Shown here: one piece after another, positions 3,833 through 40,336 of the stretch
Numbering within the stretch: the first letter of the stretch is position 1
Layout: every line of letters starts with the position of its first letter
Assembly (NCBI GenBank): GCA_963744795.1
Contig: CAVUVF010000018.1
Coordinates: forward strand, 347,530-411,529
Reading direction: 5' to 3'
DNA from: an uncultured Acidobacteriaceae bacterium
Lineage (GTDB): Bacteria > Acidobacteriota > Terriglobia > Bryobacterales > Bryobacteraceae
DNA: 64,000 bases
Position numbers and translations under genes: made by a program
Notes under the pieces: generated by a model
The model's input: the letters and a program-made list of their open reading frames with translations, nothing else
What the model was told of the DNA's origin: nothing
The model's database searches: none

Positions 3833-5263
3833 TTATTGGGCCGGTGCTGCATTCAGACCGGATCGGGAAGCCTCGACGACTACCCAGGGATTCACGTTCA
3901 CGTCTTGCAGTACGCCAGATTGCCAGGCGTACTCTTTGTGAGCTTTCAGAAATTCCGCAGCATGGAACGCCAACCCGCATGGGTGGCCCATGCCCGCTGC
4001 GAAGGAGAGGCGTTCGGCCATCGCGGCATCGGCAACTTTGACCTCCGCTACGCCTGCCGGCCCGTAGGGATCTTGCCAGTCTTTTAGTCCGCGGCTCGAC
4101 TTGTCAATATGGCCGCAGATGGTGCGCTCATTCGGATCGATTTCTTTGGTGAGCGAGATCGTAGTGATCGGTTTCAAACTTCTTGCCCAACTCAACATCA
4201 ATCCGACCCTTGTTTTCGGCCATCAACTGATCCCACCGCCTGTGCCGAACCTCGTTCGGAGTATTGGGATCGTTTGCCGGAAAATCAGTCTCTTCTTTGA
4301 TCAGCTTCGGATTGATCGGAAAATTGGAACCAACGAAGTAACCGTCTGAGCTCTGGTCAAGGGTGACGTTCTTCAGCCCCAGTTCCAGGCGCGCAATCTT
4401 GTTCACCTTGCGGTCGCCCACGAGCCAGGTATTGGCGTACGCTCCGTTGTTGTTTTCTTTCATGATTCGCGCGAAATCTTCGATGGACTCCGAATATTGC
4501 ATTGCTTTGCGTGCCCGAACGAATTCCGGCGTGCCGCTTTGCCGGAATCCGAAGAAGCTGCCGATTGTCGTTTCGGTGATCATGATTCCGCTGTCATTGA
4601 TCCCGAAGTCATCGCCGCTGTGAATCAGGCCAGGCATTCCGTCCATGATGAAGTGATGACCCGCCGAGGGAGCTATGTCGAAGATGATGTTCCATCTCGT
4701 GCCGGTCAGGTAGTCGGTCCAATTGTTATGCCCGATGACGATTCGACCATCTTTGGTGTAACTACCCGTCGCGATAAATGCACTGCAGTGTTCAGGAGCG
4801 TGACTTGACCGGGACGCCTTTTGTCTCGAGATGTTTCGCCGCATCGTAGTAATAGGTGAATTCCATGTAGGCGTTCATCGTCACCAGGTCGAGAAAATCG
4901 AGCTTCGATCCATGTGCGTGAAGGCCATCAACAATGCCTTGTCAGTTCCTCACGATATTCATCAGTGAGCTTGGAGACGAAGAGCTTGTCGGAAATCGTC
5001 CGCATTTCTGCCCACGAGTGCTTCACTCCATGAGTAGTGCTCAGTTCGATCGCTTTCTTGCTGTCCTCGATCTCGGAAGCGAGAAGAGATCCATGTTGGA
5101 AGCCGATCGCCGATGGCGTTCCTTGTAAGTGGACGTAAATCCATCCGCTCTCGAGTTTTCTGAAGGCTCCGTTGAGACGCGGGTCGGGTTGGCCTTTTCC
5201 ATAGCTCATGCCTGCTGACGCGATAACAAAGGAGGCAAGAAAGCAGACATGGCAGACGCGCAA
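3833..5263 (-). CDS. Secreted Ntn-hydrolase of the C45 peptidase / phospholipase-B-like type, frame breaks near 4200 and 4850
   Basis: Signal peptide (MRVCHVCFLASFVIASAG). The sequence HCSAFIATGSYTKDGRIVIGHNNW fits an N-terminal Cys nucleophile context. Three ORFs (4928-5263, 4128-4844, 3833-4201) are collinear. Confidence 0.55.
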
Positions 5264-5314
5264 CCGGACGCATGGCTAGTTCCTCCGATTACAGCACAGG
5301 ATTCGGGAAGACCT

Positions 5315-7600
5315 TAGTGGCCGAGCGCTTTCAAGGCGGGATCGCGAACAGCGGGATCGGCGCTCATGCTGGCATGCTGGAAGTGTTCGCGCGCTTCCGC
5401 AGCGGCGCCCTGCGGGCCAAGATGTTGCCTAACCCGAGATGGGCTTCGTAAAAGTCAGGACGAAGACGAATGGCAGCGCGGTATTCCTCAGCCGCACGTT
5501 GCGGGTTGCCTTTTGCGGCCAATAAGTCCCCCAATTCGTTATGAGCCTCTGCCTGATTGGGATCCAGCCGTACCGTTGATTCCAGTTCTGATCGCGCGCC
5601 CTCGAAATCTGAGGTAATCTCGAGCAGCAACGCGTAGTGGTGATGGGCCTCGACGTAATTCGGGTCCAGTGCAAGGGCTTTGCGGAACTCATACTTTGCT
5701 TCCGCGATATCGGCGTGTCTGCCCGAGCAGATTGGCGAGATTGTGGTGAGCAAGCGCCAGATCCGGTTGAATCCGGATTGCCTCGCGAAAGCGAGATTCC
5801 GCGGCGGCCGCCGTCGCCCTTCGCAAGACTGACGAGACCCAGCAGATTCTGAGTCTCAGGCGAGGTCGGGGTCAAGCCTGGCCGCCTCCTGAAGAGGCGC
5901 TTCGGCGCTCTCGGCTTTTCCGCTCTGCAGGTAAGCGTTGCCCAGATTCGTCAGGAGAACCGGATCGAGTTCCCCTTGTCCTCTTTCCTCGTCAATCACG
6001 CGTGCCGCGTCGTCCGGTTTGCCTTCGGCAAACAGAGCCGCAACTAATCCCTTTACTGCGGGCGCGTAATGCGGCTGCACGCGTATTGCTTCTCGGAAAG
6101 CTGCGACAGCTTTCTCCGTTTCACCGGCCTTCGCGTAAGCATTGCCTAGTTCAGTTCGAGGCTGCGGTTTCCCGCTCTTGTCCTTTTCCAATGCTGCCCG
6201 TAGTCTTGGAATGCCGCCGTCCAGGTTTGCCGAGTCTTTCACTTGAGCAACGGCCACGTACAACTCATCGCCGCCTTTCACCTGAGGCGGGTAGTACGGC
6301 ACCACTTCTCCCCGGTATCCGTCCTTGCGGTCATCAGGCTCGGCGAGTTCGGCCAATAGGTTTCCGGATGGCTTCTGCCGCTGAATGAAGTGATCCGTCA
6401 TCACCGTATGCACAGCATCCTGGGAACGCCGTTTCGGCATATGGCAATCGAGACAACTGCTGGTTGCTCCGCTCATCTTTGCAACGTGACCCGAGTTGGA
6501 GTGGCATGTGCGGCAGACGGCAACGTAGTGCTCCTTAGCCGCCACGCCGCGAGGTATGTCGTGCGGATTGTGACAGGTGAGGCAGGTCATCTGCGATTCA
6601 CGAAAACAAGCCGATTGTCGAAGACGGTAAGCAGCGCCGGCAATTTCGAACCGATCGACACCGGGGCGAGGCTGCTGGTCAAAATGCAGCGCGTAATCCG
6701 GAAGCGGCTCGCCGGGCCGGTAAGAAAACACACCGCGATCGTATCTTCGGATCGAATAGGGCAGCGGACGGCTCGACGTCTCGAGGTGGCATTGCATGCA
6801 GACCTCCATCTGGCGGTCACGATCGAGCTTTGCGGGATTGACGATGGTGCGGCGAATTTCGTCGGGTTTCGCATGTCCGGACTGAACCAGAGCGACATGA
6901 GCGCTCCCCGGTCCATGACAACGCTGGCAATCAATGCCTTCCGGTAGATTGGCCGGAAAGACCGGCTTCGCGCCTGCTATGTCAGTGCCCGGCTTTACGG
7001 ACGGATAGCCGTTGTGGCAGGACATGCATTCGTATGGAATCGGACGGCGAAAATCGTCCTGGTCAGCCCGGTCGTATCCCGGGCTCATGGCCCAGTAGCC
7101 GTTCTTCTCTGCGTACCAACTGACGGGAAGTTCCTTTAGCTGTCCATCGGGAGTGCGGGACAGATACGTACGTGCATGATTGCCCGATCCGATGACGTAG
7201 TCGACGGGCTTCTCTAGAAGATTCGTCTCTTTCCCGTCCCATCCGATCTGGTGTCGGCGCTGCCAAAGCTTGCCGTCGTGCTCGGCCATCTCGTAGTAGC
7301 GATCGGAAGCTTTGTGGTAGAGCTTGGCGTGAGAACCAGACGCCGCGCCGTCCTTTTGGGGGTCGGCGCGATGAAAAGAGCGCCCCATCCCGGTCCGGCT
7401 GTATGTTTGTGCGACGTCGCGATGGCAGGTTGCACAAACGGCCGGATCAACGTAGACAGGACCGGCGGCTTTGGCCGCCGGTCCTGCAAGTGTCTGGTTG
7501 GGTTCGGCCCTTTTGCACGAAGAGCCGAGACCAACAACAAGGGCCAGTGCCGCGATTGCGGCTGTTCTAGACCGAGCGCTCAGAAGCGAAGACGGAGCGC
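5315..7600 (-). CDS. Multihaem (7 x CXXCH) cytochrome c fused to C-terminal TPR repeats, probable lipoprotein; frame breaks near 7575, 5860 and 5400
   Basis: Haem motifs are CATCH (upstream extension), CMSCH, CQRCH, CMQCH, CLTCH, CRTCH and CLDCH. The upstream in-frame extension reads AAIAALALVVGLGSSC, a lipobox-like sequence. TPR-like repeats span 5315-6200 (AYAKAGETEKAVAAFREAIRVQP..., NELGDLLAAKGNPQRAAEEYRAAIRLRPDF). Confidence 0.75.
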
Positions 7601-7608
7601 CATTTGCA

Positions 7609-10600
7609 TCAGACGAGGTTGATTAAGCTGCGTCGATATAACTCCGAATGTCGAATTCGCTGCTGTTGTGTATTCACGTTCGGCTGTCCAAACTGAACAC
7701 GATTGAAGAGGTTGAACGCTTCCGCTCGAAACTCCAGATTGAAGCGTTCAGTGATCGCTGTCCGTTTGAATATCGAGAAATCAAAGTTTGCGATACCGGG
7801 ACCGCGCAGGACAGGATCAGTTCTGCTTGCGTTTCCGAACGTGAAGGGCGCTGGCAAACTGAAGCACGACGTATTAAACCAGCCATTGATGCGGGATTGG
7901 GCAGAGCCGGAGACGGTCCGATCGCAGTTTGGCGCTACGTTCGGTCGCAATCCAGTATTGAAGCCCGTCGTATTCGGGGTGGCCGTAAATCCGAGAGGCA
8001 ATCCCAGCTGGAACGTCGTCAGACCCGTTGATGCCCCATCCGGAAACAAGTTTGTCGGTCAGGCCTGACGCACCAGATAGGAACATCCGGCCCTTGCCGA
8101 AGGGAAGGTCATAGACGTAGCTGATGACGAGCCGCTGGCGAGTATCAAAGCTGGATAAGCGCTTTTTCGGCCCGCAAGTTGTACCAGTTCTGAACACCGG
8201 CCACACCCGTTGGGACTATCCAGCCAGGTGGTGAGCGTCTCGGCATTCGAAAGGATCTTCGAGAAGGTATACGAACCGAGCAATGTGCCGCCCGACTTGA
8301 AGCGCTTCTCTGCTTTCACCTGGAGAGAATGATACGTGCTGTCGCCGCTGAAATCGGCCGGAGCAGAAAGGCTCAAGTATTGAGGATACGGCGAGAGCAA
8401 TTGACCCCGTCTGCACCGTGGGCAGCGAGAGCGCACCATAGGCGACTCGTCCGAGGAACGGATTCGGTACCTGGTCCCTGAGCGAGGTCCCGAGCGAGAA
8501 GTACTGGGGATTAATCTGGTTATATTGGCGTCCCTAACGGCAAGATGCATGCCGCGCAACCCCGCGTAGCCAGCCTCCAAGCGCGATATCGCCCGGAAGT
8601 TGATGTTGGACGGTGAAGTTCCACTGATAGGCATAGGAATTATTTGCCTGATACGGGTTGGCGCGGCCGCCCAGATTAGTTCCGAGGAAGTTCTGCTGAT
8701 AGCGGGGATCACGCCCCGGAGGAGGCGATAACCCCATTAGGTAGTGGATTGCTCAGAGTCGCCGAGTAGGTGACGAAGTTATCGAGCGAGCCGACAACGG
8801 GATTCTGGAACAGGTTGACCGGATTTCCGTTCGGACCCTGAGGGAAGGAAATTGTGGCGGGGCTTAAGAACATGCCGCCGCCGGTTCGAACCACGGTTTG
8901 ATCGACGACGCGGTAAGCGATTCCAACGCGCGGAGTGACATAGTGATACTTCTCGGGGTTCAGGCCCTCTTCCGGATGATTGGGGCTGGCGACCAGGTCG
9001 AATGCACCTCGAACAGGTTGCCCGTTCACAAGCACCCCGGTAAGAGCAGGGTTGGGTTCGCTGAAGTTGAACGTAGCCTGGCGGTTGTAGCGCTCGCGGT
9101 AGACGCCTGGAATCTCCCATCGTGCTCCCAGCGTGAGCGTAAGCTTCTTAGTTGCCTGCCAGGTATCCGTCACGAAGTAGCCCTGGTAATAGAGGGTCGT
9201 GAAGGTGAAGGATGAGGTCTGCACGCAGGCTGCTGTTATTCGGGATGCCGAGCAGGAACGAAGCTAAGCCGCTCCCCGTAGACCCGGAATTTAATGCATT
9301 CTGAGACGTAATCAGATTGTCGAAATTGTACATGCCGCCAGGGGTGTTGTTCTGGAAGTAATTCAGCTCGTTTTTGTGGATCTCGGCGCCGAACTTCCAG
9401 GTATGCTGCCCCTTGATCCAGGTGAAGGTCGGAGTCAGGGTATACGTATCATCTCTTCCGTAGAGAAGCCCGGTTGAGATCGCGTTGTAAGTGGGAGAGG
9501 TGATAGCTAAACTGGGGCATGGTGGTGGATGGGATCCAGTCCGTTGAGTACGAGGAACCTGTGAATAGTACGACGGGAAATCCGAGTGTGGCCGGATCGA
9601 GACCCAGCGTTCCCGGGATGCGGTCGTAGTCCCAACGGATGAAGCCCGCCCGGATATCGAAGATCATGGTCGGGTTCAAAACATACGTGTCGGCCAACAT
9701 GGCTTGTTGCGTGATGAAGTGCTCCGGAGAGTACGGATCGCCACTGCGCAAGCCGTTGCCGTACACGTCCACAGGAAGGTTGGCGGAAGTCCAGCGAGTA
9801 TAGCGGGCTAAGATGCGTTGTTTGTCGCTGAACTGATGGTCTCCGCGGATATTGTACTGATCGTTGTCGCCGCCCGGTGCTGGCGTTACGCGCAAAGTTG
9901 AAGTTGTTCGTGAAAGGCTGCCCGGGGTGTTTGGTGCGGCATAATACGGGAAACCCAATACTTTTGCTGCGACGGGATTGATACGCGAAGCGGGGATGAT
10001 GTTGCCAGGGAACTGAGTGCGCTGGACGGTTCCGCTTCCACAAGCCGGATTCCCATAAGCGCCGCATTGCGTCAGCGGATCGTAGATTGGAATCTGCTGT
10101 CCGGATGCGTTCAGGTAGCCCGAGAAATCGCCTCTTGCCTGTGCCGCGGTTGGGACTGTGTTGCTGAACAACACGCCCTGCCGCGCTCGAAACCCTTCAT
10201 AACCGAAGAAGAAGAATGTCTTATCTTTCTTGATCGGTCCGCCGATGTTCGCGCCGAATTGATTTTGCTTGAATGGCGCTTTCCCAGCGCCTGAACGGTT
10301 CGCGAAGAAGTTGGTTGCGTTCAGAACTGTGTTGCGGAAGTATTCATAAGCAGCTCCGTGAAACTCGTTGGTGCCGGATTTCGAGGTGATGTTGATCACA
10401 CCGCCGGTATAGCGGCCATACTCTGCCGTATTGTTATTGGTCTGAACACGAAACTCAGAGACAGTGTCCACCGATGGCACCAGGGCGACAATGTTTCCGT
10501 AAGTGATGTTCAATGGGACGCCGTCCAGAAACTGGGCGCTCTGATTCGCCGTACCGCCGCCAATTTGGTAGTTTCCTGCAGAGAACACGTTTTTCCCGGT

Positions 10601-12329: not shown

Positions 12330-13106
12330 CAGGACTTAGCGAATTCAGCCCAGACCACCGTGTGGTCCGAAGCGGAAGGCGCTTTCCGCGGTTCGAGATC
12401 GACGTCTACCGGTCCGACAGTTCGCGGCAAGAGGCGCCAGTCACCAGAATGTGATCGATGCGCCAGCCCCAGTTATTCTGAAATGCATTACGAAAATAAT
12501 CCCAATACGTGTACTGAATGCGATCGGGATGAAGCTGCCGAAACGTGTCGGTGAATCCCCAACCAACTACTTCCTGAAATGCATTGCGGGCATCGATATG
12601 GAAATCGACATCGTTCACGCGGCGGTCTGGATGATAAACGTCGATCGGTTCCGGAGCGACGTTCAGGTCGCCCAGCCAGATCACCGGGTCTGAAGGGCTG
12701 AAAGTGTTCTTCGAGGTATTGCCGCATGCGACGGAACCACTCGAGCTTGTATTGGTATTTCTCCGATTTGATCGAATGTCCCTGGGGCACGTAAGTATTG
12801 ATGATCGTCACCCCTTCAATCGCAATTTGCAGGATACGGACGTCTTCGTTGTCGGGTCCGTCGTGGAACCCGTGTTTGACAGTATTTGGCGCGGTGCGGC
12901 TCAAGGTAGCCACCCCGTTGTACGCCTTCATGCCCGCGGAAGGTTGCGTGATAACCCGCTTCGCGGAACGTCTCGATCGGGAACTCGGAATCCTGGACTT
13001 TCGTTTCCTGCAGGCACATCACATCCGGTTTGTGTTGCTCGAGCCAGGCCAGCACAATAGGGAGGCGCTTGCGCAGCGAGTTTACGTTGTAGGTGGCGAT
13101 CTTCAT
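12330..13106 (-). CDS. xth: Exodeoxyribonuclease III, frame breaks near 12900, 12690 and 12410; 3' end approximate
   Basis: [15 protein letters not shown]...[28 protein letters not shown] and WRIDHILVT fall across ORFs 12816-13106, 12488-12931 and 12406-12684. Confidence 0.85.
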
Positions 13107-33848: not shown

Positions 33849-34763
33849 TTATTCTCCGCGAAGCGGAACCGGGGCTTCCGGTAATTCCTCTTCACCCATC
33901 CCGTACCGCGAACGTCCTCGCCGCTCGCGATTTCCGCCCGGCCACTCGATCCTCAAATCACGGCAGACTTCGTCAAGCATGTCGAGCGTGGTTGACCTTT
34001 TCTCCATTGCGAACGCCGTAATGAGCAGATTGTCGCAAAGCAGGTTGATCAGGCGAGGGATTCCCCGGGATCTCACGTAAATTTCGTCCAGAACATCGAG
34101 CGGAAACACCGTCTGGTTCGGCATGCCGGCCCGGGCGAGTCTCGTTTCGATGTACGCGATCACTTCGTCAGGTGAAAGAGGGTCGAGCGTGCAGCGGAGT
34201 ACAATGCGCTGTTTCAACTGACGAAGATTGGAGGCGTCCAGCTTGCGGTCGAGTTCCGGCTGACCGGCCAGGATGATCTGCAGCAGCTTGCCGTGCCGGT
34301 TTTCCAGGTTGCCCAGTAATCGAATTTCTTCCAGTACTTCCCAGTCCAGGTTATGCGCTTCGTCCACGATCAGAGCGGTGGTTCTGCCGCGCTCAGCCTG
34401 TTGAATGAGCAGGGAGTTAAGGGCGAACAGCACTTCGGGCTTCGATTTCCGGTCGCATTGAAGGTCGAAATCGAAGGCCATCATCTCGAAAAATTGTTCC
34501 GGAGTAAGACGGGAATTGAAGATAAACGCAAACTCAATGCGTTGCGATTCCAGGTAATCCCGCAAACACTCGAGCATGGTTGTCTTGCCGGTTCCGACTT
34601 CGCCCGACAGTACGATGAAACCTTTCCGGCCTCGTACGCCGTAGATAAGATTTGCTAGTGCTTCCTCATGCTGAGGACTACGGTAGAGAAACTCCGGATC
34701 CGGACTGATTTCGAACGGGTTCTCGGCAAATCCGAAATACGCGTTATAGATCGCGCTTTGCAT
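33849..34763 (-). CDS. ExeA-like AAA+ ATPase (AAA_22; resembles PEP-CTERM/XrtA-associated ATPase, TIGR03015-like)
   Basis: Intact 304-aa ORF with FGFAENPFEISPDPEFLY, Walker A SGEVGTGKTT, Walker B LIVDEAHNL, ILAGQPEL and RGIPRLINLLCD. Confidence 0.8.
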   Translation of the reverse strand: MQSAIYNAYFGFAENPFEISPDPEFLYRSPQHEEALANLIYGVRGRKGFIVLSGEVGTGKTTMLECLRDYLESQRIEFAFIFNSRLTPEQFFEMMAFDFDLQCDRKSKPEVLFALNSLLIQQAERGRTTALIVDEAHNLDWEVLEEIRLLGNLENRHGKLLQIILAGQPELDRKLDASNLRQLKQRIVLRCTLDPLSPDEVIAYIETRLARAGMPNQTVFPLDVLDEIYVRSRGIPRLINLLCDNLLITAFAMEKRSTTLDMLDEVCRDLRIEWPGGNRERRGRSRYGMGEEELPEAPVPLRGE

Positions 34764-34869
34764 GTCTGATTAAACTCAACGAGCCGTGGAAAGGTACAGC
34801 GGCGTCTTACGAACCCCCGACACTCCCATCATAGAGGAATATCGGCAGTTCAGCCCCTAAGCTTTACCC

Positions 34870-36012
34870 TTAGGCGTCGAACTGAGCAATCGCCCAACCG
34901 GCCAAACTGGCTGGCTGCCCGCCTTTGAACACCACGCGGCGGGTTTTGGGAAAGATAGCGCCCTCGCGAAGTCCTCGACTCAAGCGCCGGAACCGTCCGG
35001 AGAATTTTCCGGAACGAATCCTGTTCGGTTTCGAGATAAGCGGATTTCGATACGAACCCACCGCCCCAGCCGAGGCAGAGCAAACAGCTGAGAGACGCCT
35101 CTCTGGCCTTGGCGAGTTCCTCCCGTAAGCGACTGACGGTGTTGACAATTCCGGAAAGCCCTGCGGTTTCGGCATAACGCCCCTGCGCCTCGATTTGGGC
35201 TTCGGCGAAGTCATTCGCCGCGTCCACGATCATCTTCGGGCTCGGCACGGAACGCCAGCCCAAAGCGCGCGCAATTTCCTGATTTTCGAGGAAGCTCCGT
35301 TCCTGCCAGGTGCCGGTGAACGAAGTACCCGGCGTAGCCATTTCCGCGAACAGAGGTGTGGCGTCGGACATTCGCTGGGGAGGGACGCTGCCCCTTCCGG
35401 TTACTTTCCAGGAGAGTTGGGGTTTCCCCCCTGCGCTGCGTTGACCGAGGCGGTCCGGGTTAAAAAGACCTTGAACGCTCCGTGCGGAATCGGCTCGCTA
35501 TCCGAGAGGGAAACTACTTTCGTCTGACTGGCGCCAGCGGAGCTTTCGGCTGCTTCGCTCACCCGGCGTGGCAAACGATCGTTCTCAAGGGACGACGCCA
35601 TGCGATCAATGGTGGCCTGGGACCAACGCGAATGCACCAATCCCGAGCGCAGAGCGCCTTTGAGGGCCGAAGCGGGGAGATAAGCCCCCCGGTAGCTGGA
35701 AGCAAATGTCGGAATAAATAGTACTTCCGAAGGCGTGGCGTTCCAAATGGCGGTGGAGTCCGCGTGCTCGAACGGAATTCGACGTTGCGAAAAATTCTGA
35801 GCAAAGCCGCCCCACGAGGCGAAATCCAGCTTGGTGGCTTTCCGTAATTGGTTCAGGTAGCCCTCTAGTCGGGGACCTCGCGCCAGCAATTTGAAAATCC
35901 TGTTTTGATCGAGTACGTTGACCTGGTCCTTCCAGACCATGTAATCGATCGGGGACAACGCGCGCCCGTCCCCGACGAGCAGTGGCGTAAGCGCGGTGAC
36001 TTTATACTTCAT
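34870..36012 (-). CDS. csm5: Type III-A CRISPR RAMP protein Csm5, frame breaks near 35420 and 34980
   Basis: N-terminus MKYKVTALTPLLVGDGRALSPIDYMVWKDQVNVLD, PASALKGALRS, Gly-rich loop LGWGGGFVSKS, and after a frame shift FPKTRRVVFKGGQPASLAGWAIAQFDA. Its ATG at 36012 overlaps the preceding coding frames. Confidence 0.8.
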
Positions 36013-37435
36013 CGTTACCCTGCCCAGTGTCCTCGGTCGTTTCCTTCGCTCCCTCTTCGGCGACGGTCCCCTCGGTTGTTTGCTCGACTTGCTCCGCCGT
36101 TGTTTCCGGCTCTGGAGCCGCCGACGGTCTCGCCAGCGTCGGCCGGCAACTGCTCCGGCTCCTGGCTCACGTCCAATTCGGCTTCGGCGGAGAGCGTCGG
36201 AACTTCAATCTCGCCGGCCGATTCGGACCGCTCTGATTGGGAAACGGCCGCGGTCGGCGGCTCGCACGGCGATAACGTTTCCGGCTCCTCTGCGCGTGCC
36301 TGCTCCCTCAGGAGTATCGGAAAGCGCAGTCTGCGGCGTCGTTTCCACTGCCCCTCTCCAGCGCGTGGGTGCCTCGGCGAACGGGAGCTTGCAGGTGAGG
36401 GCGAAGCCCGCACGGTAAACGGGATGAGAGAAGTTTTCCGGGGCCACGTCGACCGCAACCCCGACCGGTTCGTCTCGTACGGCCAGCACGGAACCTTCGG
36501 CGATCATCCGCAGCGCCTTTTTCGCAGCTCCGCTTCCCGCCCGGCTATCTACGTGTCCGTTTCGAGAGGTCAGCTGATAATCGCCGCTGCTCCAATCGAC
36601 GGAATCTTTGGGCCCCGGGGAATAGAGAGAAAGGAGCCAAAACAAAGGGGCCTGTTCACTTTCGGTTCCGGGCTCGGGCCCGCCGTCCGACGCTCCCGCG
36701 ACTTTGGGAAGGAGCAGCCTGGGCCAGGATCCGCTTTCGAATTCAGGGGCGGCCGTTTGTCCCCAGCCACTGCTCCGACGGCCTCCGAAACCCGTATCGG
36801 CGAGCAGCCGGAAGGCTCCGCGCACTCGTTCTCCCCACGTTGCTTCCGCGTTCTCATCCGCAAAACGCGCAACACCCCAGAGGCCCGCGCCGTTCTCGAA
36901 TTCGATGCACGCGATACTGCGCGCCGTCCCTGACGTTTCGCTTAAGCGGTCGACCCCGGCACTCGTCCGACTCGAATAACGAAACGGGCTTGTGCTCGGG
37001 CGGTCGCGCCGCAAGAGGCATCCGCTCTCTCCATCAACGATCCACTGGTCCGCCAATAGAGGCTGTGACAACAGCAGCGACTCGGTTAACGGACAACGGG
37101 ACGTACTGCGCCGCCGCCCAACGCATCTTGGACAGAAACACCGGACTTGGGCTGGTCAGCAAAGAGGCCGGAGGCGGCCACACGGTAGCCGGAGGCGGAG
37201 CAAACAGCGTGTCCCCTTGAAACGGAAACAATGAACTGAAGACAACCGCCGGAGTCGGACTGAGCGCTGTCGCTTCGAGCCACTCCGAAAGCAAGTCGAG
37301 GTGCTGCATGGCGAGCGTGACCGCTGAATACAGGCGGTCGCTTCGAAATGCGCTCTCGACTTGCCCTTGACCGATTCCAACTCCGCAGCGCCACGGTCCG
37401 AGCGGACGCAAGCGGATAACGACAGCCGGCTGCAT
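36004..37435 (-). CDS. csm4: Type III-A CRISPR RAMP protein Csm4 (Cas5 family) plus an acidic low-complexity C-terminal tail; frame breaks near 37090 and in 36110-36400. The core may end at 36205.
   Basis: N-terminus RLRPLGPWRCG...AFRSDRLYSAVTLAM and Gly-rich loop LLADTGFGGRRSSGWGQ. The ATG at 37435 abuts the csm3 stop (TAAATG). The tail reads EEPETLSPCEPP...EIEVPTLSAEAELDVSQEPEQLPADAGETVGG, then PEPETTAEQVEQTTEGTVAEEGAKETTEDTGQGNDEV. Confidence 0.75.
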
Positions 37436-38272
37436 TTAGGCCAGTTTTTCTCCGAAGTCGTCGGCAGCGACGAGTTGCTGCAAGGCTGCCAGTTCCGCGC
37501 CTGAAACAAGCGTGCTCTCGCTCGCTCCCTTCCCGTAGTAATCCTTGCTGCGCCAGGAAAGAGTCAGCGAGCCGAACGAGATGCGTCCGCTTCCCCGGCT
37601 GCCGCCCCCGCCGAGCGAATCGTCTTCGAGCAAGCGAAGCGCCTCGGGGATCCGCGCCACCAGCGGTTTGTCTTCCGGACACAGTACATCGAGAACCATG
37701 CGGAACCGGAATCGTGCGCCGGCGGGAACACGCTCGAGGGTGCGCGGATTCGCCTGAGACGTAATGCGATCGACGGCGTTCTCGCTCTTCACTTCGGTGA
37801 GTTCGTCATCCAGGTTTTCGCGCATCTGCTGCGTGATGCTGTCGAGAACCAGGGGCGAGTCGTAGACCGTGAGGCGTGCCGGCGTGGCAGCGGCCGATTC
37901 CGAGGCTTCACCACCAGACACTTTCTCCACGCGCGCGGGGCTTCGGCCAAAAAGGAGACACACTTCGTCGTCCGGCCGATCGCTCTGGTGGATGCGTACT
38001 TCCTGTCCGCGTCGTTTCGACACGTAAACAAGTTCATTCGGTACGGTGAGCCCAAGCGATTGCTCGAGCAGGCTGCGCAAACGCCCGCGAAGTGAACTGC
38101 CCGGAATGTAGGGTACGCCGAACGCATCTTTGACTACGGGATTGTCGGCGCCGCCGATTTCGAGCGACCCTTTACCGGCGCCGATATGGAGGCCGGTCTG
38201 GCACTGAATCTCGCCTTCGAGAATCAGCTTTCCAAGGAACGTCAGTTGCGTTCCTGCAGTATGAGAACTCAT
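37436..38272 (-). CDS. csm3: Type III-A CRISPR RAMP protein Csm3 (Cas7 backbone subunit)
   Basis: Intact 278-aa ORF with GLHIGAG, IGGADNPVVKD (Asp43 at the expected catalytic position), IPGSSLRGRLRS, LLFGR, TEVKSENAVDR and LGGGGSRGSGRISF. Confidence 0.9.
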   Translation of the reverse strand: MSSHTAGTQLTFLGKLILEGEIQCQTGLHIGAGKGSLEIGGADNPVVKDAFGVPYIPGSSLRGRLRSLLEQSLGLTVPNELVYVSKRRGQEVRIHQSDRPDDEVCLLFGRSPARVEKVSGGEASESAAATPARLTVYDSPLVLDSITQQMRENLDDELTEVKSENAVDRITSQANPRTLERVPAGARFRFRMVLDVLCPEDKPLVARIPEALRLLEDDSLGGGGSRGSGRISFGSLTLSWRSKDYYGKGASESTLVSGAELAALQQLVAADDFGEKLA

Positions 38273-38311: not shown

Positions 38312-38848
38312 CTATTCGTTGTAAGCAATGATGGCCTCGAACAGGTCACGGAACCGTTCGTAGCCGCGCGTATCGTTTTTGCGTGTGACCTGAAGCAATA
38401 GACGTTCGAGAGCATCGAGACTGCGGAGCGAGTGCCGCGCAATGGTGTACGCAAGACGCGCGCGCACCATCACGAACTCGTGTTGCCGTTCCGATTCGGG
38501 GGTTCGGGTTGCTCGCCGTACGGCATTGTAGAGACGCCGAAGCTGACTCTTTGTGCCGGAATCCATGTCGCGCATTCTGCTGACAACGACGTGCGCCTGA
38601 TTGTCCAGATAGAGACTATCGGAGATCAGCTTTTCGAGATCGATTTCGGGCGGTCCCTCGGGTCTGCGGTCACCGCCGCCCGGCCGGCCTCCTCCTCCAC
38701 GATTCTCGCGTCCGCGATCGCCCCGGCCTTCTCCGGATCCGCGTTCGTTGCCGCCGCGAGGACCTCCGCCGCCGGGCCGGCCTTCGCGTGGAGGCCGCGA
38801 TTCGCCCGAACGCCGCTCGTCGCCCTTCTTTTCTTCAGTTTCTGCCAT
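38312..38848 (-). CDS. csm2: Type III-A small subunit Csm2 (Cas11) with an Arg/Gly-rich N-terminal extension
   Basis: The C-terminal 105 aa or so fit Csm2: TKSQLRRLYNAV, ARLAYTIAR, FRDLFEAIIAYNE. The SD-like GGAAGGTGAT lies 4 nt before ATG 38848, so the GTG at 38857 given by the ORF track is a less likely start. The first 70 aa or so are RG/RGG-rich. Confidence 0.8.
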   Translation of the reverse strand: MAETEEKKGDERRSGESRPPREGRPGGGGPRGGNERGSGEGRGDRGRENRGGGGRPGGGDRRPEGPPEIDLEKLISDSLYLDNQAHVVVSRMRDMDSGTKSQLRRLYNAVRRATRTPESERQHEFVMVRARLAYTIARHSLRSLDALERLLLQVTRKNDTRGYERFRDLFEAIIAYNE

Positions 38849-38872
38849 CTGAATCACCTTCCGTCGAGAGCA

Positions 38873-40336
38873 CTAAACGCTCTCGCCTGCTGCCAATCGC
38901 GCCCACTCCAGACCAACACGCCCCGATGGGCGTAGCTTCACCGCGTTTGTTCTTTTACCGATCAAGCTGTTGATCACCGCGTTGCGCACATTGTTTACTT
39001 CTTTCCCTCGCGACTGAGGGATAACCCTGGCGAGCCGCATATAGGTCCGCCACGGCTTGTCGACCCGGGCCGCCTTTCTACGCGGGGAGCGAACGGCCGT
39101 GCCCTCGCGATAGACCGAGGCCAGATCATAGATGTATTGCGGCGGATATCCGAAATCGCGAACGAGTCTGACCAGGCTCGACTTCAATTCCTCCGCGTCG
39201 ACCAAGCGCTTCCACTCGAGAGTTCTGCCGAAAAGCGAGAATGTCCCCGGTTCCGTGGCCTTTGCCTGTCGCAACTGCGAAATGGCCGTTTGTAACACGG
39301 CGCCGATGGCTTCGCTGCCCTCGGGAGCGATGGCCAAAGACATACTGATGGTTTTGCCCTCGAAAGCCGACGCAGCCTGTACGTTCTCGCCGGCAAACTT
39401 GTCGAACAGTCGCTGAAGCTCACGCGCGAGCAGAAGCAGGGCGTCCCAGGAGCCCACGACCGCAAAGTCGTCGCCGCCGAGATAGACCACCGTCACTTTG
39501 CGCCAGAAATCCGGGAGTGTGCCGAGCAACGAAAGCTCACCGGCGAAAAACTCCTTGAACATGACGGAGAGATGAATGTGTTCTTCGGCCGTCCCGGCGC
39601 TTCGGAGCAGCGCGTCGAAGTTATCGACATCCCCGATCAGGATTCCCCATCGCGCTCTGCCGTCCGCTCTCTCTGCCAGTTGCTGCAACGCCAGGACCTG
39701 GCCCTCGTCGCTCATCGCCGTCCGGCGCGGGAACACAACCGCATCTTCAGTAAGGCTCGATTGCTCCTTGAGAGGCCATGAATACTGGCTTCCTTCCCAC
39801 TGGAGTTCCCCTGGGCGTTCAGAAGACCAGCCCACGCTCGACGCTGATACGACTCCTGCGGCAAATTGCGAGAAATAAGACGATACCGACTTCCCATCCT
39901 CGGTTGCAGACAGAAATGCAGTTACACTCGCTTCCCTGGACAGCGGTGCCGATCGAAAAGTAGATAGCGCATCATCCAGCCGCTTCCGCACTACCGGCCA
40001 CGCACCCAGATCCTCCGTGCTTGCCCAGATCAGCCGAAGATGATCCCCGGAAATGTCCGAAACCGCAGTTGCTGCGCGATTCAATAGTTCGTTGGCGCGG
40101 GGAAGATCTTCTTCCGTCAGAACCAGAAGAAACTGCTCGGAGCTTGCCGAGCCAAGGAGCATGCGAGATAGCTTCAGCTCGGCGAGGAGCGCACGCGGCA
40201 AGACTTCGCAGAAGAGACTGAGCCACGCGCACCGGCCCCGGAAGCTCAAAAGGGGGTCTTCATTGATCGCGGGCTCGGCAGCGAGAAAGTCGTTTCCACC
40301 AATCAGGTGGGCTTGCAAAAAGACCTGCAGCGACAT
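38873..40336 (-). CDS. cas10: Minimal Cas10 (Csm1-like) with GGDD cyclase palm and no HD domain
   Basis: Intact 487-aa ORF. GGDD (YLGGDDFAVVG) is encoded at 39467-39478. Palm Asp box WGILIGDVDNF, and a C-terminal helical D4-like region. It heads the csm2-csm5 operon. An in-frame TAA at 40451-40453 and the divergent gene at 40579 exclude a hidden N-terminal HD domain. Confidence 0.8.
   Translation of the reverse strand: MSLQVFLQAHLIGGNDFLAAEPAINEDPLLSFRGRCAWLSLFCEVLPRALLAELKLSRMLLGSASSEQFLLVLTEEDLPRANELLNRAATAVSDISGDHLRLIWASTEDLGAWPVVRKRLDDALSTFRSAPLSREASVTAFLSATEDGKSVSSYFSQFAAGVVSASSVGWSSERPGELQWEGSQYSWPLKEQSSLTEDAVVFPRRTAMSDEGQVLALQQLAERADGRARWGILIGDVDNFDALLRSAGTAEEHIHLSVMFKEFFAGELSLLGTLPDFWRKVTVVYLGGDDFAVVGSWDALLLLARELQRLFDKFAGENVQAASAFEGKTISMSLAIAPEGSEAIGAVLQTAISQLRQAKATEPGTFSLFGRTLEWKRLVDAEELKSSLVRLVRDFGYPPQYIYDLASVYREGTAVRSPRRKAARVDKPWRTYMRLARVIPQSRGKEVNNVRNAVINSLIGKRTNAVKLRPSGRVGLEWARLAAGESV

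Follow-up and report, generated by a model that had tools for sequence, protein, structure and literature searches.

A long, charge-balanced Arg/Gly-rich N-terminal tail on the Csm2 small subunit of a reduced type III-A-like module in Bryobacterales

Small subunits of the Cas11 family, among them Csm2 of type III-A CRISPR–Cas complexes, are usually regarded as small, poorly conserved helical spacers. The canonical Csm2 proteins of Thermococcus onnurineus (PDB 6MUR, 6O7H and 6IQW) and Staphylococcus epidermidis combine a helical core of ~110 amino acids (aa), which holds a target-RNA-contacting T/S-x-x-Q-[IL]-R...Y helix, with a short unstructured basic N-terminal tail that is seen in many members of the family. 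Csm2 contacts the target-RNA backbone (PMC10289348), and the 13-aa N-terminus of S. epidermidis Csm2 has been predicted to be unstructured, with its function stated to be unknown (PMC6468305). Disorder has a demonstrated accessory role on another subunit, as S. epidermidis Csm5 needs a region predicted to be disordered in order to bind and stimulate polynucleotide phosphorylase (PNPase; PMC9762709). Here we describe a csm2 gene in a 64,000-nt stretch of DNA from an uncultured Acidobacteriaceae bacterium (contig CAVUVF010000018.1; the whole stretch is called the window below). Its product falls in the same Pfam and TIGR family as canonical Csm2, is encoded at the same position between cas10 and csm3 and shares the helical core, but carries a far longer Arg/Gly-rich N-terminal tail. 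The gene and its parts are as follows.

38312..38848, minus strand: csm2 (cas11) gene, 178 aa plus stop codon; from its translation, matches to PF03750 and TIGR01870, and 98-99% identity to proteins of independent assemblies
38645..38848, minus strand: N-terminal disordered Arg/Gly-rich polyampholyte tail, residues 1-68; from composition, charge, an AlphaFold2 (AF2) model, orthologues and the ratio of non-synonymous to synonymous substitution rates (dN/dS)
38315..38644, minus strand: helical Csm2 core, 110 aa (IDLEKL...AYNE); from a 76-genome alignment, AF2 and a match to 6mur_B
38857..38862, minus strand: Shine–Dalgarno (SD)-like GGAAGG, 8 nt 5' of ATG 38848; from the sequence
38777..38797, minus strand: conserved SRPPREGR motif in the tail, residues 18-24; from RPPRE counts in orthologues

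The csm2 open reading frame (ORF) begins at ATG 38848-38846 and ends with a stop codon at 38312-38314. Its translated residues 1-68 read MAETEEKKGDERRSGESRPPREGRPGGGGPRGGNERGSGEGRGDRGRENRGGGGRPGGGDRRPEGPPE and are followed by IDLEKL... and the Csm2 core (window 38312-38857, minus strand); we set the junction between tail and core at 38645, directly before IDLEKL. The initial annotation, made from the letters of the DNA, had placed an Arg/Gly-rich extension on Csm2 at 38633-38848, which was right, and the sequence it quoted was reproduced. It had also reported that no internal Met precedes the core and that an SD-like element stands before ATG 38848, both of which we confirmed: the next Met after the start is residue 92, inside the helical core, and GGAAGG lies 8 nt before the ATG. 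The sole alternative in-frame start before the core, GTG 38857, three codons 5' of the ATG, is unconserved.

Profile matches place this ORF in the Csm2/Cas11 small subunit family of type III-A. PF03750 (Csm2_III-A) covers residues 81-176 (E 9e-10; 39.8 bits, cut-off 24.8) and TIGR01870 covers residues 99-177 (41.5 bits, cut-off 30.6), with both matches confined to residues 81-177 and the tail outside both profiles; PADLOC Csm2 models match the orthologue in the related locus L002. The core is exactly 110 aa long throughout the 76 genomes compared, with 74 invariant columns and a median pairwise identity of 94%, an unusual degree of conservation next to canonical Csm2. AF2 gave five helices over residues 71-177, with a predicted local distance difference test (pLDDT) score of 50-67 from a shallow alignment, and the TKSQLRRLY helix motif of the core aligns with the RNA-contacting helix of T. 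onnurineus Csm2. An antisense ORF of 167 aa (38432..38935, plus strand), which lies over csm2 and the end of cas10, was considered and set aside as unsupported, the opposite gene being under strong selection; its most likely origin is the GC-rich coding sequence of the opposite strand.

Relatives were collected in two ways. A search of 5.8 billion protein clusters returned 5729 matches, of which the best 120 were inspected; all of these are 173-198 aa long with the tail, and many are annotated as Csm2 from Bryobacteraceae metagenome-assembled genomes (MAGs). A scan of GTDB species representatives found a relative encoded in at least 579 genomes, from which we retrieved 80 loci; 76 full-length csm2 genes were used for the tail and core statistics. 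Every one of the 80 loci is labelled Bryobacteraceae, Bryobacterales, Terriglobia or Acidobacteriaceae, and they include the isolate KBS 96 (locus L035) and one Candidatus Solibacter MAG. The survey of surroundings covered ±10 kb around 82 related loci, a total of 1.54 Mb. A 50%-identity representative library was a poor guide to tails because many of its members are chimeric or frameshifted fragments.

The tail is almost certainly real, translated and under selection. The initial annotation had proposed both that the extension is translated and that orthologues would be informative, and the comparison bears this out: the tail is kept in 76/76 full-length orthologues (45-92 aa, median 69), a conserved ATG gives M-[AP]-[EDQ] in 75 of them, and an AAGG or GAAAGGA element occupies the equivalent place before the ATG in 70 of the 76 loci. 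The middle of the tail varies in length as G[DE]RG-like units are gained or lost, and length differences between relatives are always frame-preserving, with indels that sum to multiples of three. Codon analysis provides the strongest evidence. The window tail differs from that of locus L003 by 30 synonymous and 0 non-synonymous changes, and ten close pairs, at a synonymous divergence (dS) of about 0.7-1.3, gave a tail dN/dS of 0.00-0.06; the median in random pairs was 0.17 for the tail, compared with 0.03 for the core. Stops occur in frame +2 of the tail in 70/76 orthologues. Purifying selection on the tail is strong, about as strict as that on many folded domains.

It is very improbable that the tail is an artefact or neutral junk, whether from a frame error, from translation that begins downstream of the tract or from a tolerated GC-rich repeat expansion without function. 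Frame disruptions do occur in the window's neighbouring csm4, csm5 and fadB genes, and some orthologues (P0126 and P0127) are called from an internal Met. However, the same ORF recurs at 98-99% identity in independent short-read assemblies, its indels are in frame and its dN/dS is very low, which together speak against the frame error that the initial annotation had named as a possible refutation. The ATG and SD-like element are conserved, the window holds no internal start, and the tail-less calls P0126 and P0127 are themselves gene-call artefacts, cut to an internal Met: in locus L085, whose csm2 was called as P0127, an in-frame ATG with GAAGGAG stands 125 codons upstream of the called csm2 start.

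The composition of the tail is that of a well-mixed, charge-balanced polyampholyte of Arg, Gly, Asp, Glu and Pro, disordered by composition. The 68 residues in the window include 22 Gly (32%), 14 Arg (21%), 11-12 Glu, 15-16 Asp plus Glu and 8 Pro, and the median of the 76 tails is similar (Gly 27%, Arg 21%, Asp plus Glu 21%, Pro 12%), with a median of 2 hydrophobic residues. The commonest dipeptides across the 76 tails are RG, GG, GP, DR, GD and GR, which correspond to G[DE]RG-like units. Normalised hydropathy in the window tail is 0.258 against a disorder boundary of 0.424, and AF2 modelled residues 1-70 as coil at pLDDT 38-44, which lends weak support to disorder as the whole-model mean is 50; the disorder proposed by the initial annotation is thus upheld. 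The charged fraction is 0.44, with a net charge of about +2 (0 with IDLE counted), or +0.03 per residue. Among the 76 tails net charge is +2 in 62 and +1 in 10 (range 0 to +4, standard deviation 0.54) while the number of charged residues varies from 20 to 41, a constancy that describes a pattern among sequences of shared ancestry and is no formal test. Kappa, which describes charge mixing, is 0.047 in the window tail against 0.144±0.053 in shuffles, 0.7% of which were equally low, and lies at 0.03-0.08 in all 76 tails. Short motifs are conserved as well: an N-terminal MAExEEKKxEERR, RPPRE, and GDRRxEGPPEID at the junction. RPPRE occurs in 51/76 tails and RP.RE in 58/76, the most divergent lineages included. 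Among plausible ORFs in the 1.54 Mb of related DNA, no other has a tail-like composition. A collagen-like G-X-Y periodicity was dismissed by eye, the spacing being irregular.

The initial annotation had likened the extension to the RGG tracts of eukaryotes, and this analogy holds in part. RGG/RG motifs are reportedly defined (Thandapani 2013) as di- or tri-RGG or as tri-RG, with spacers of 0-4 residues. The window tail has 2 RGG, 5 RG and 4 GR; the RGG triplets, at residues 31 and 50, are 19 residues apart and too distant for di-RGG, and a tri-RG pattern is present, with RG at residues 36, 42, 45 and 50 (RG-x4-RG-x1-RG-x3-RG, residues 36-51). The tail shares with eukaryotic RGG/RG domains a Gly/Arg-rich, disordered and multivalent character, and its alternation of Arg with Asp or Glu is like that of RD/RE domains, among the Arg-rich mixed-charge domains (R-MCDs) said to have been described by Greig in 2020. 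Eukaryotic RGG domains are strongly positive, whereas the Bryobacterales tail, which is bacterial, has near-zero net charge and lacks their net cationic character. A classical cationic RGG box is ruled out by this charge, by the interleaved acidic residues and by the presence of two RGG only.

Comparison with other Csm2 proteins shows the tail to be an enlarged form of a common feature. A query with the core only showed the Bryobacterales family as a tight clade at 55% identity or above, with ordinary Csm2 next at 28-48%. A profile of ordinary Csm2 retrieved 120 more proteins, most of which have an N-terminal tail of 28-37 aa with abundant Arg, Asn, Gln and Gly (MGQHQRGNRNSQQGRNRGSQHGDNR is one example); altogether, 46/131 have at least 15 aa before the core with Gly plus Arg at 35% or more. 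The nearest solved structure, T. onnurineus Csm2 (6mur_B), has the N-terminus ...HGGYGRGGYGRQDRPQVDASRLFGE, which HMMER aligned with the end of the tail, and its basic N-terminal stretch is HGGYGRGGYGRQDRP. Relative to canonical Csm2 the Bryobacterales tail has two to three times the length (45-92 aa and more, compared with 13-37 aa), is far richer in Gly and Pro, is balanced by Asp and Glu and is marked by conserved motifs; it is the longest, most Gly-rich and charge-balanced form of the Arg-rich Csm2 N-termini. An Arg-rich flexible N-terminus is therefore widespread on Csm2 and undiscussed in the literature. The claim of the initial annotation that such tracts are undescribed on Cas11 subunits stands insofar as we found no description in the literature, and needs qualifying in that shorter Arg-rich tails are common on ordinary Csm2, that of T. 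onnurineus included.

Five Csm2 proteins (P0224, P0303, P0320, P0338 and P0340) have an N-terminal cold-shock domain in place of the tail (42-54 bits, cut-off 27), and one such fusion lies inside a type III-A operon (locus L088, 2177-2737). The cold-shock domain is an OB fold that binds single-stranded RNA and DNA. Like the tail, this accessory module is N-terminal and found in III-A operons, but it is a folded domain rather than a disordered one. Since Arg-rich tails and cold-shock fusions both occur at the Csm2 N-terminus, this end of the protein looks like a recurrent attachment site for nucleic-acid-binding appendages. The region IDR2 (intrinsically disordered region 2) of S. epidermidis Csm5 is likewise a charged, predicted-disordered segment of a III-A subunit, although it is an internal loop of 11-46 aa on a different subunit, Lys-rich and non-homologous to the tail.

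The tail very likely belongs to a lineage-wide variant module. The genes around csm2 in the window are as follows.

38873..40336, minus strand: truncated cas10/csm1, 487 aa, with domain B, palm2 (GGDD) and the C-terminal domain; from Pfam, TIGR02578 and BLASTP
37436..38272, minus strand: csm3 (cas7), 278 aa, with the catalytic-loop Asp (GGADNPVVKD); from TIGR02582, 200 bits
36005..37435, minus strand: csm4 (cas5), in four reading frames in the window; from tblastn frames
34850..36012, minus strand: csm5, its middle out of frame in the window (indels near 35428 and 34982); intact in relatives
33849..34763, minus strand: AAA_22 ATPase, conserved downstream neighbour; from TIGR03015, 293 bits
31716-33824: fadB-like gene, in four frames in the window
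About 36005-36305 in the window, 12420-12898 in locus L002 and about 12500-12799 in locus L001: Csm4 acidic tail

The gene order cas10-csm2-csm3-csm4-csm5 is shared by the window and all related loci long enough to hold the operon, which is a reduced type III-A-like operon inherited throughout the order Bryobacterales. Its Cas10 is truncated: Pfam matches are to palm2 and weakly to Csm1_B, TIGR02578 matches only at model positions 484-730 of 753, and by BLASTP residues 201-486 align only with 493-767 of a canonical 775-aa Cas10. Neither the HD domain (PF01966) nor palm1 was found in this Cas10, which departs in this from the combination of an HD domain with two palms that is characteristic of III-A. 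Across loci Cas10 is 461-487 aa long (orthologues 461-478 aa, as in L002 at 8559-9944 and L085 at 4176-5612). The palm2 motif is YLGGDDF in the window; GGDD is present in 53 loci and GGED, GGEE or GGDE in 8, with the pattern unmatched in 22. Csm3 has GGADNPVVKD or a close variant in 81/83 loci, its equivalence to D32 of S. epidermidis Csm3 (SeCsm3) being judged by motif position only. In locus L019 (about 8588-10534) cas10 and csm2 form one uninterrupted ORF, which is either a natural Cas10–Csm2 fusion or an assembly error.

Csm4 is intact in relatives (459-501 aa) and in most Bryobacterales loci ends in an acidic Pro/Glu-rich disordered tail, with a median of 77 aa, a maximum of 231 aa and a net charge of about -19; csm5 is likewise intact in relatives (368-380 aa). 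An extra acidic N-terminal segment of about 40-80 aa was seen on Csm2 in L085 (5626-6342) and L074, and a similar one in the protein P0129. Canonical III-A loci are built differently, with an HD-containing Cas10 of 745-775 aa, Cas6, a CARF protein or Csm6, Cas2, Csm2 tails of 28-53 aa rich in Arg, Gly, Asn and Gln, and a Csm4 of 320-330 aa without an acidic tail. In 65 loci an ATPase of the AAA_22 type is encoded after csm5, and some loci lack it; it resembles the ATPase of PEP-CTERM systems but scores just below the cut-off for that family (TIGR03015, 293 bits against 324.5). The spacer between csm5 and the ATPase gene (window about 34764-34849; L002 14031-14174) holds a conserved promoter-like TTGG.A...GAATTGCCGATAAG...CAGTATGATGG, and this element suggests a separate transcript for the ATPase.

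In the window, csm4, csm5 and fadB are broken by single-base events, csm2 being unaffected. Because these disruptions are absent from close relatives, they are probably assembly indel errors, and real pseudogenes are unlikely; L002 has unbroken copies of all three, and in L001 it is cas10 that is split. Identity relative to L002 is ~95% for the Csm2 core, ~85% for Csm3, ~70% for Csm5 and ~65% for Cas10, against 55-77% for the neighbouring housekeeping protein FadB. The module evolves slowly, at housekeeping-like rates and at least as slowly as the adjoining fadB.

The usual companions of such an operon were not detected nearby. No CRISPR array emerged from tandem-repeat (TRF), direct-repeat and k-mer scans of the 64-kb window and of ±10 kb around the 82 loci, the rest of the genomes not having been searched; the sole array-like match (L082) was a repeat in the coding sequence for the acidic tail of Csm4. 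By tblastn no cas6 was found over the same range, and no cas1 or cas2 lies near the operon in any of 83 loci. A tblastn search of limited sensitivity gave no match to csm6 or csx1 across the loci, no gene with a Pfam CARF domain was found in L001, L002 or L085, and an Rfam scan of the window returned no matches. Together with the occurrence in at least 579 genomes and the slow evolution, the absence of a nearby array, cas6 and csm6 makes it possible that the system is exapted, or that its guides come from elsewhere in the genome. Types III-G, III-H and IV-B (PMC12669027, PMC7937560) similarly lack both an adaptation module and a nearby array and have a reduced Cas10, and type IV-B complexes have a Cas11 filament and bind non-CRISPR RNA (PMC12669027, PMC7937560). 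The Bryobacterales module differs from these types in that hidden Markov models identify its subunits clearly as Csm2 to Csm5, and in that the Csm3 Asp and Cas10 GGDD are mostly kept while HD is lost, the opposite of III-G and III-H.

As to function, we tentatively favour the reading that the Csm2 tail is a flexible RNA-contacting arm; our overall confidence is limited, the mechanism being the least certain part. The minor filament would hold several Csm2 copies, each projecting a flexible tail into solvent, where its Arg/Gly units may make weak, multivalent contacts, independent of sequence, with RNA; this could be the guide, or the target transcript with its flanks. Such contacts would raise the rate of capture and the dwell time, and the interleaved acidic residues, perhaps helped by the acidic tail of Csm4, would limit the strength of binding, leave it reversible and prevent the arms from adhering to nucleic acid in bulk. 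In S. epidermidis, whole complexes are recovered in pull-downs through a His tag at the N-terminus of Csm2 (PMC9762709), which indicates that the Csm2 N-terminus is accessible in the assembled complex. We prefer an RNA-contacting arm because Csm2 lines the target RNA, its N-terminus is exposed and nucleic-acid-binding elements have repeatedly been placed there. Several points weigh against it. The tail is near neutral, with Arg flanked by Asp or Glu every few residues, which should weaken non-specific RNA binding relative to RGG boxes, and the RGG triplets in the window tail number only two. A dN/dS of about 0.03 and motifs such as MAExEEKK and RPPRE would be more typical of a disordered region that docks a partner than of an RNA arm defined by composition, and in an array-less module the CRISPR RNA is putative only.

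Docking of a partner is the main rival, though itself a rather unlikely one, in which the motifs MAExEEKKxEERR, RPPRE and GDRRxEGPPE would bind a specific putative protein, such as a housekeeping RNase or degradosome, the adjoining AAA ATPase or another Csm subunit, and so supply effector activity to a module that lacks HD and Csm6. The low dN/dS extends across the whole tail (0.00-0.06) and the motifs are retained in the most divergent lineages; Cas10 is without HD and palm1, no CARF effector was found nearby, 65 loci have the ATPase gene after the operon, and the disordered region of S. epidermidis Csm5 that acts on PNPase is a precedent (PMC9762709). However, the ATPase has an apparent promoter-like element of its own and is missing from some loci, and the free length variation of the middle of the tail (45-92 aa, in G[DE]RG-like units) would be expected of a spacer or of an element that sets valency more than of a single docking site. 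The acidic Csm4 tail offers another candidate partner: the Csm2 arms may bind it as a nucleic-acid mimic until target displaces it, which would gate the RNA groove or the Csm2 copy number. Both tails are present in most loci, the Csm4 one with its median of 77 aa and net charge of -19, and in L074 and L085, where Csm4 has no acidic tail, Csm2 has the extra Ala/Pro/Glu-rich acidic N-terminal segment. This pairing is nevertheless distinctly unlikely, as the almost neutral Csm2 tail (+2) would give weak net attraction, both the Csm4 tail and the acidic Csm2 segment are lacking in L056 and L063, the lengths of the Csm2 and Csm4 tails are uncorrelated (Spearman 0.11, p 0.42), and Arg-rich tails occur on Csm2 in canonical systems, where Csm4 has no acidic tail.

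Well-mixed neutral polyampholytes are said, in the Das-Pappu and Lin-Chan frameworks, to form expanded coils with a weak drive to phase-separate. This bears on the proposal that multivalent tails move the complex into RNA–protein condensates, such as degradosome bodies, or nucleate them, for which the tri-RG pattern, the high Gly and Arg content, the several copies per complex and an acidic Csm4 tail that could support complex coacervation all speak. With kappa at about 0.04, better mixed than random, a net charge of about zero and almost no aromatic residues in the tail, weak self phase separation would be expected, and a role as condensate driver or client is improbable. A broader idea, which we regard as doubtful, is that the array-less, HD-less III-A effector has become in Bryobacterales a vertically inherited core machine evolving at housekeeping-like rates, whose function would need the disordered tails of Csm2 and Csm4 to recruit RNA-decay enzymes or to place the complex in RNA–protein assemblies; it would then be an exapted device for RNA surveillance or regulation rather than for defence.

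Bryobacterales proteins of this family are already in databases, annotated plainly as Csm2. We found no description in the literature of such Csm2/Cas11 tails, of cold-shock-domain–Csm2 fusions or of the Bryobacterales module; the 2025 CRISPR-Cas classification mentions no Bryobacterales or Acidobacteriota variant, and a genomic survey of Acidobacteriota is likewise without the module. In this module no protein is better conserved than the small subunit, which carries a long disordered tail under selection, with net charge held at +2 while tail length and the number of charged residues nearly double. An unstudied general rule is suggested, with the Csm2 N-terminus as an anchor for accessory nucleic-acid-binding elements, and the short-tailed Csm2 of T. 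onnurineus and S. epidermidis make this rule directly testable; it may also have relevance to the engineering of type III RNA-detection tools. Bryobacterales are a soil order and among the most abundant groups of soil bacteria. The module is a candidate exapted CRISPR effector in at least 579 species of this abundant group.

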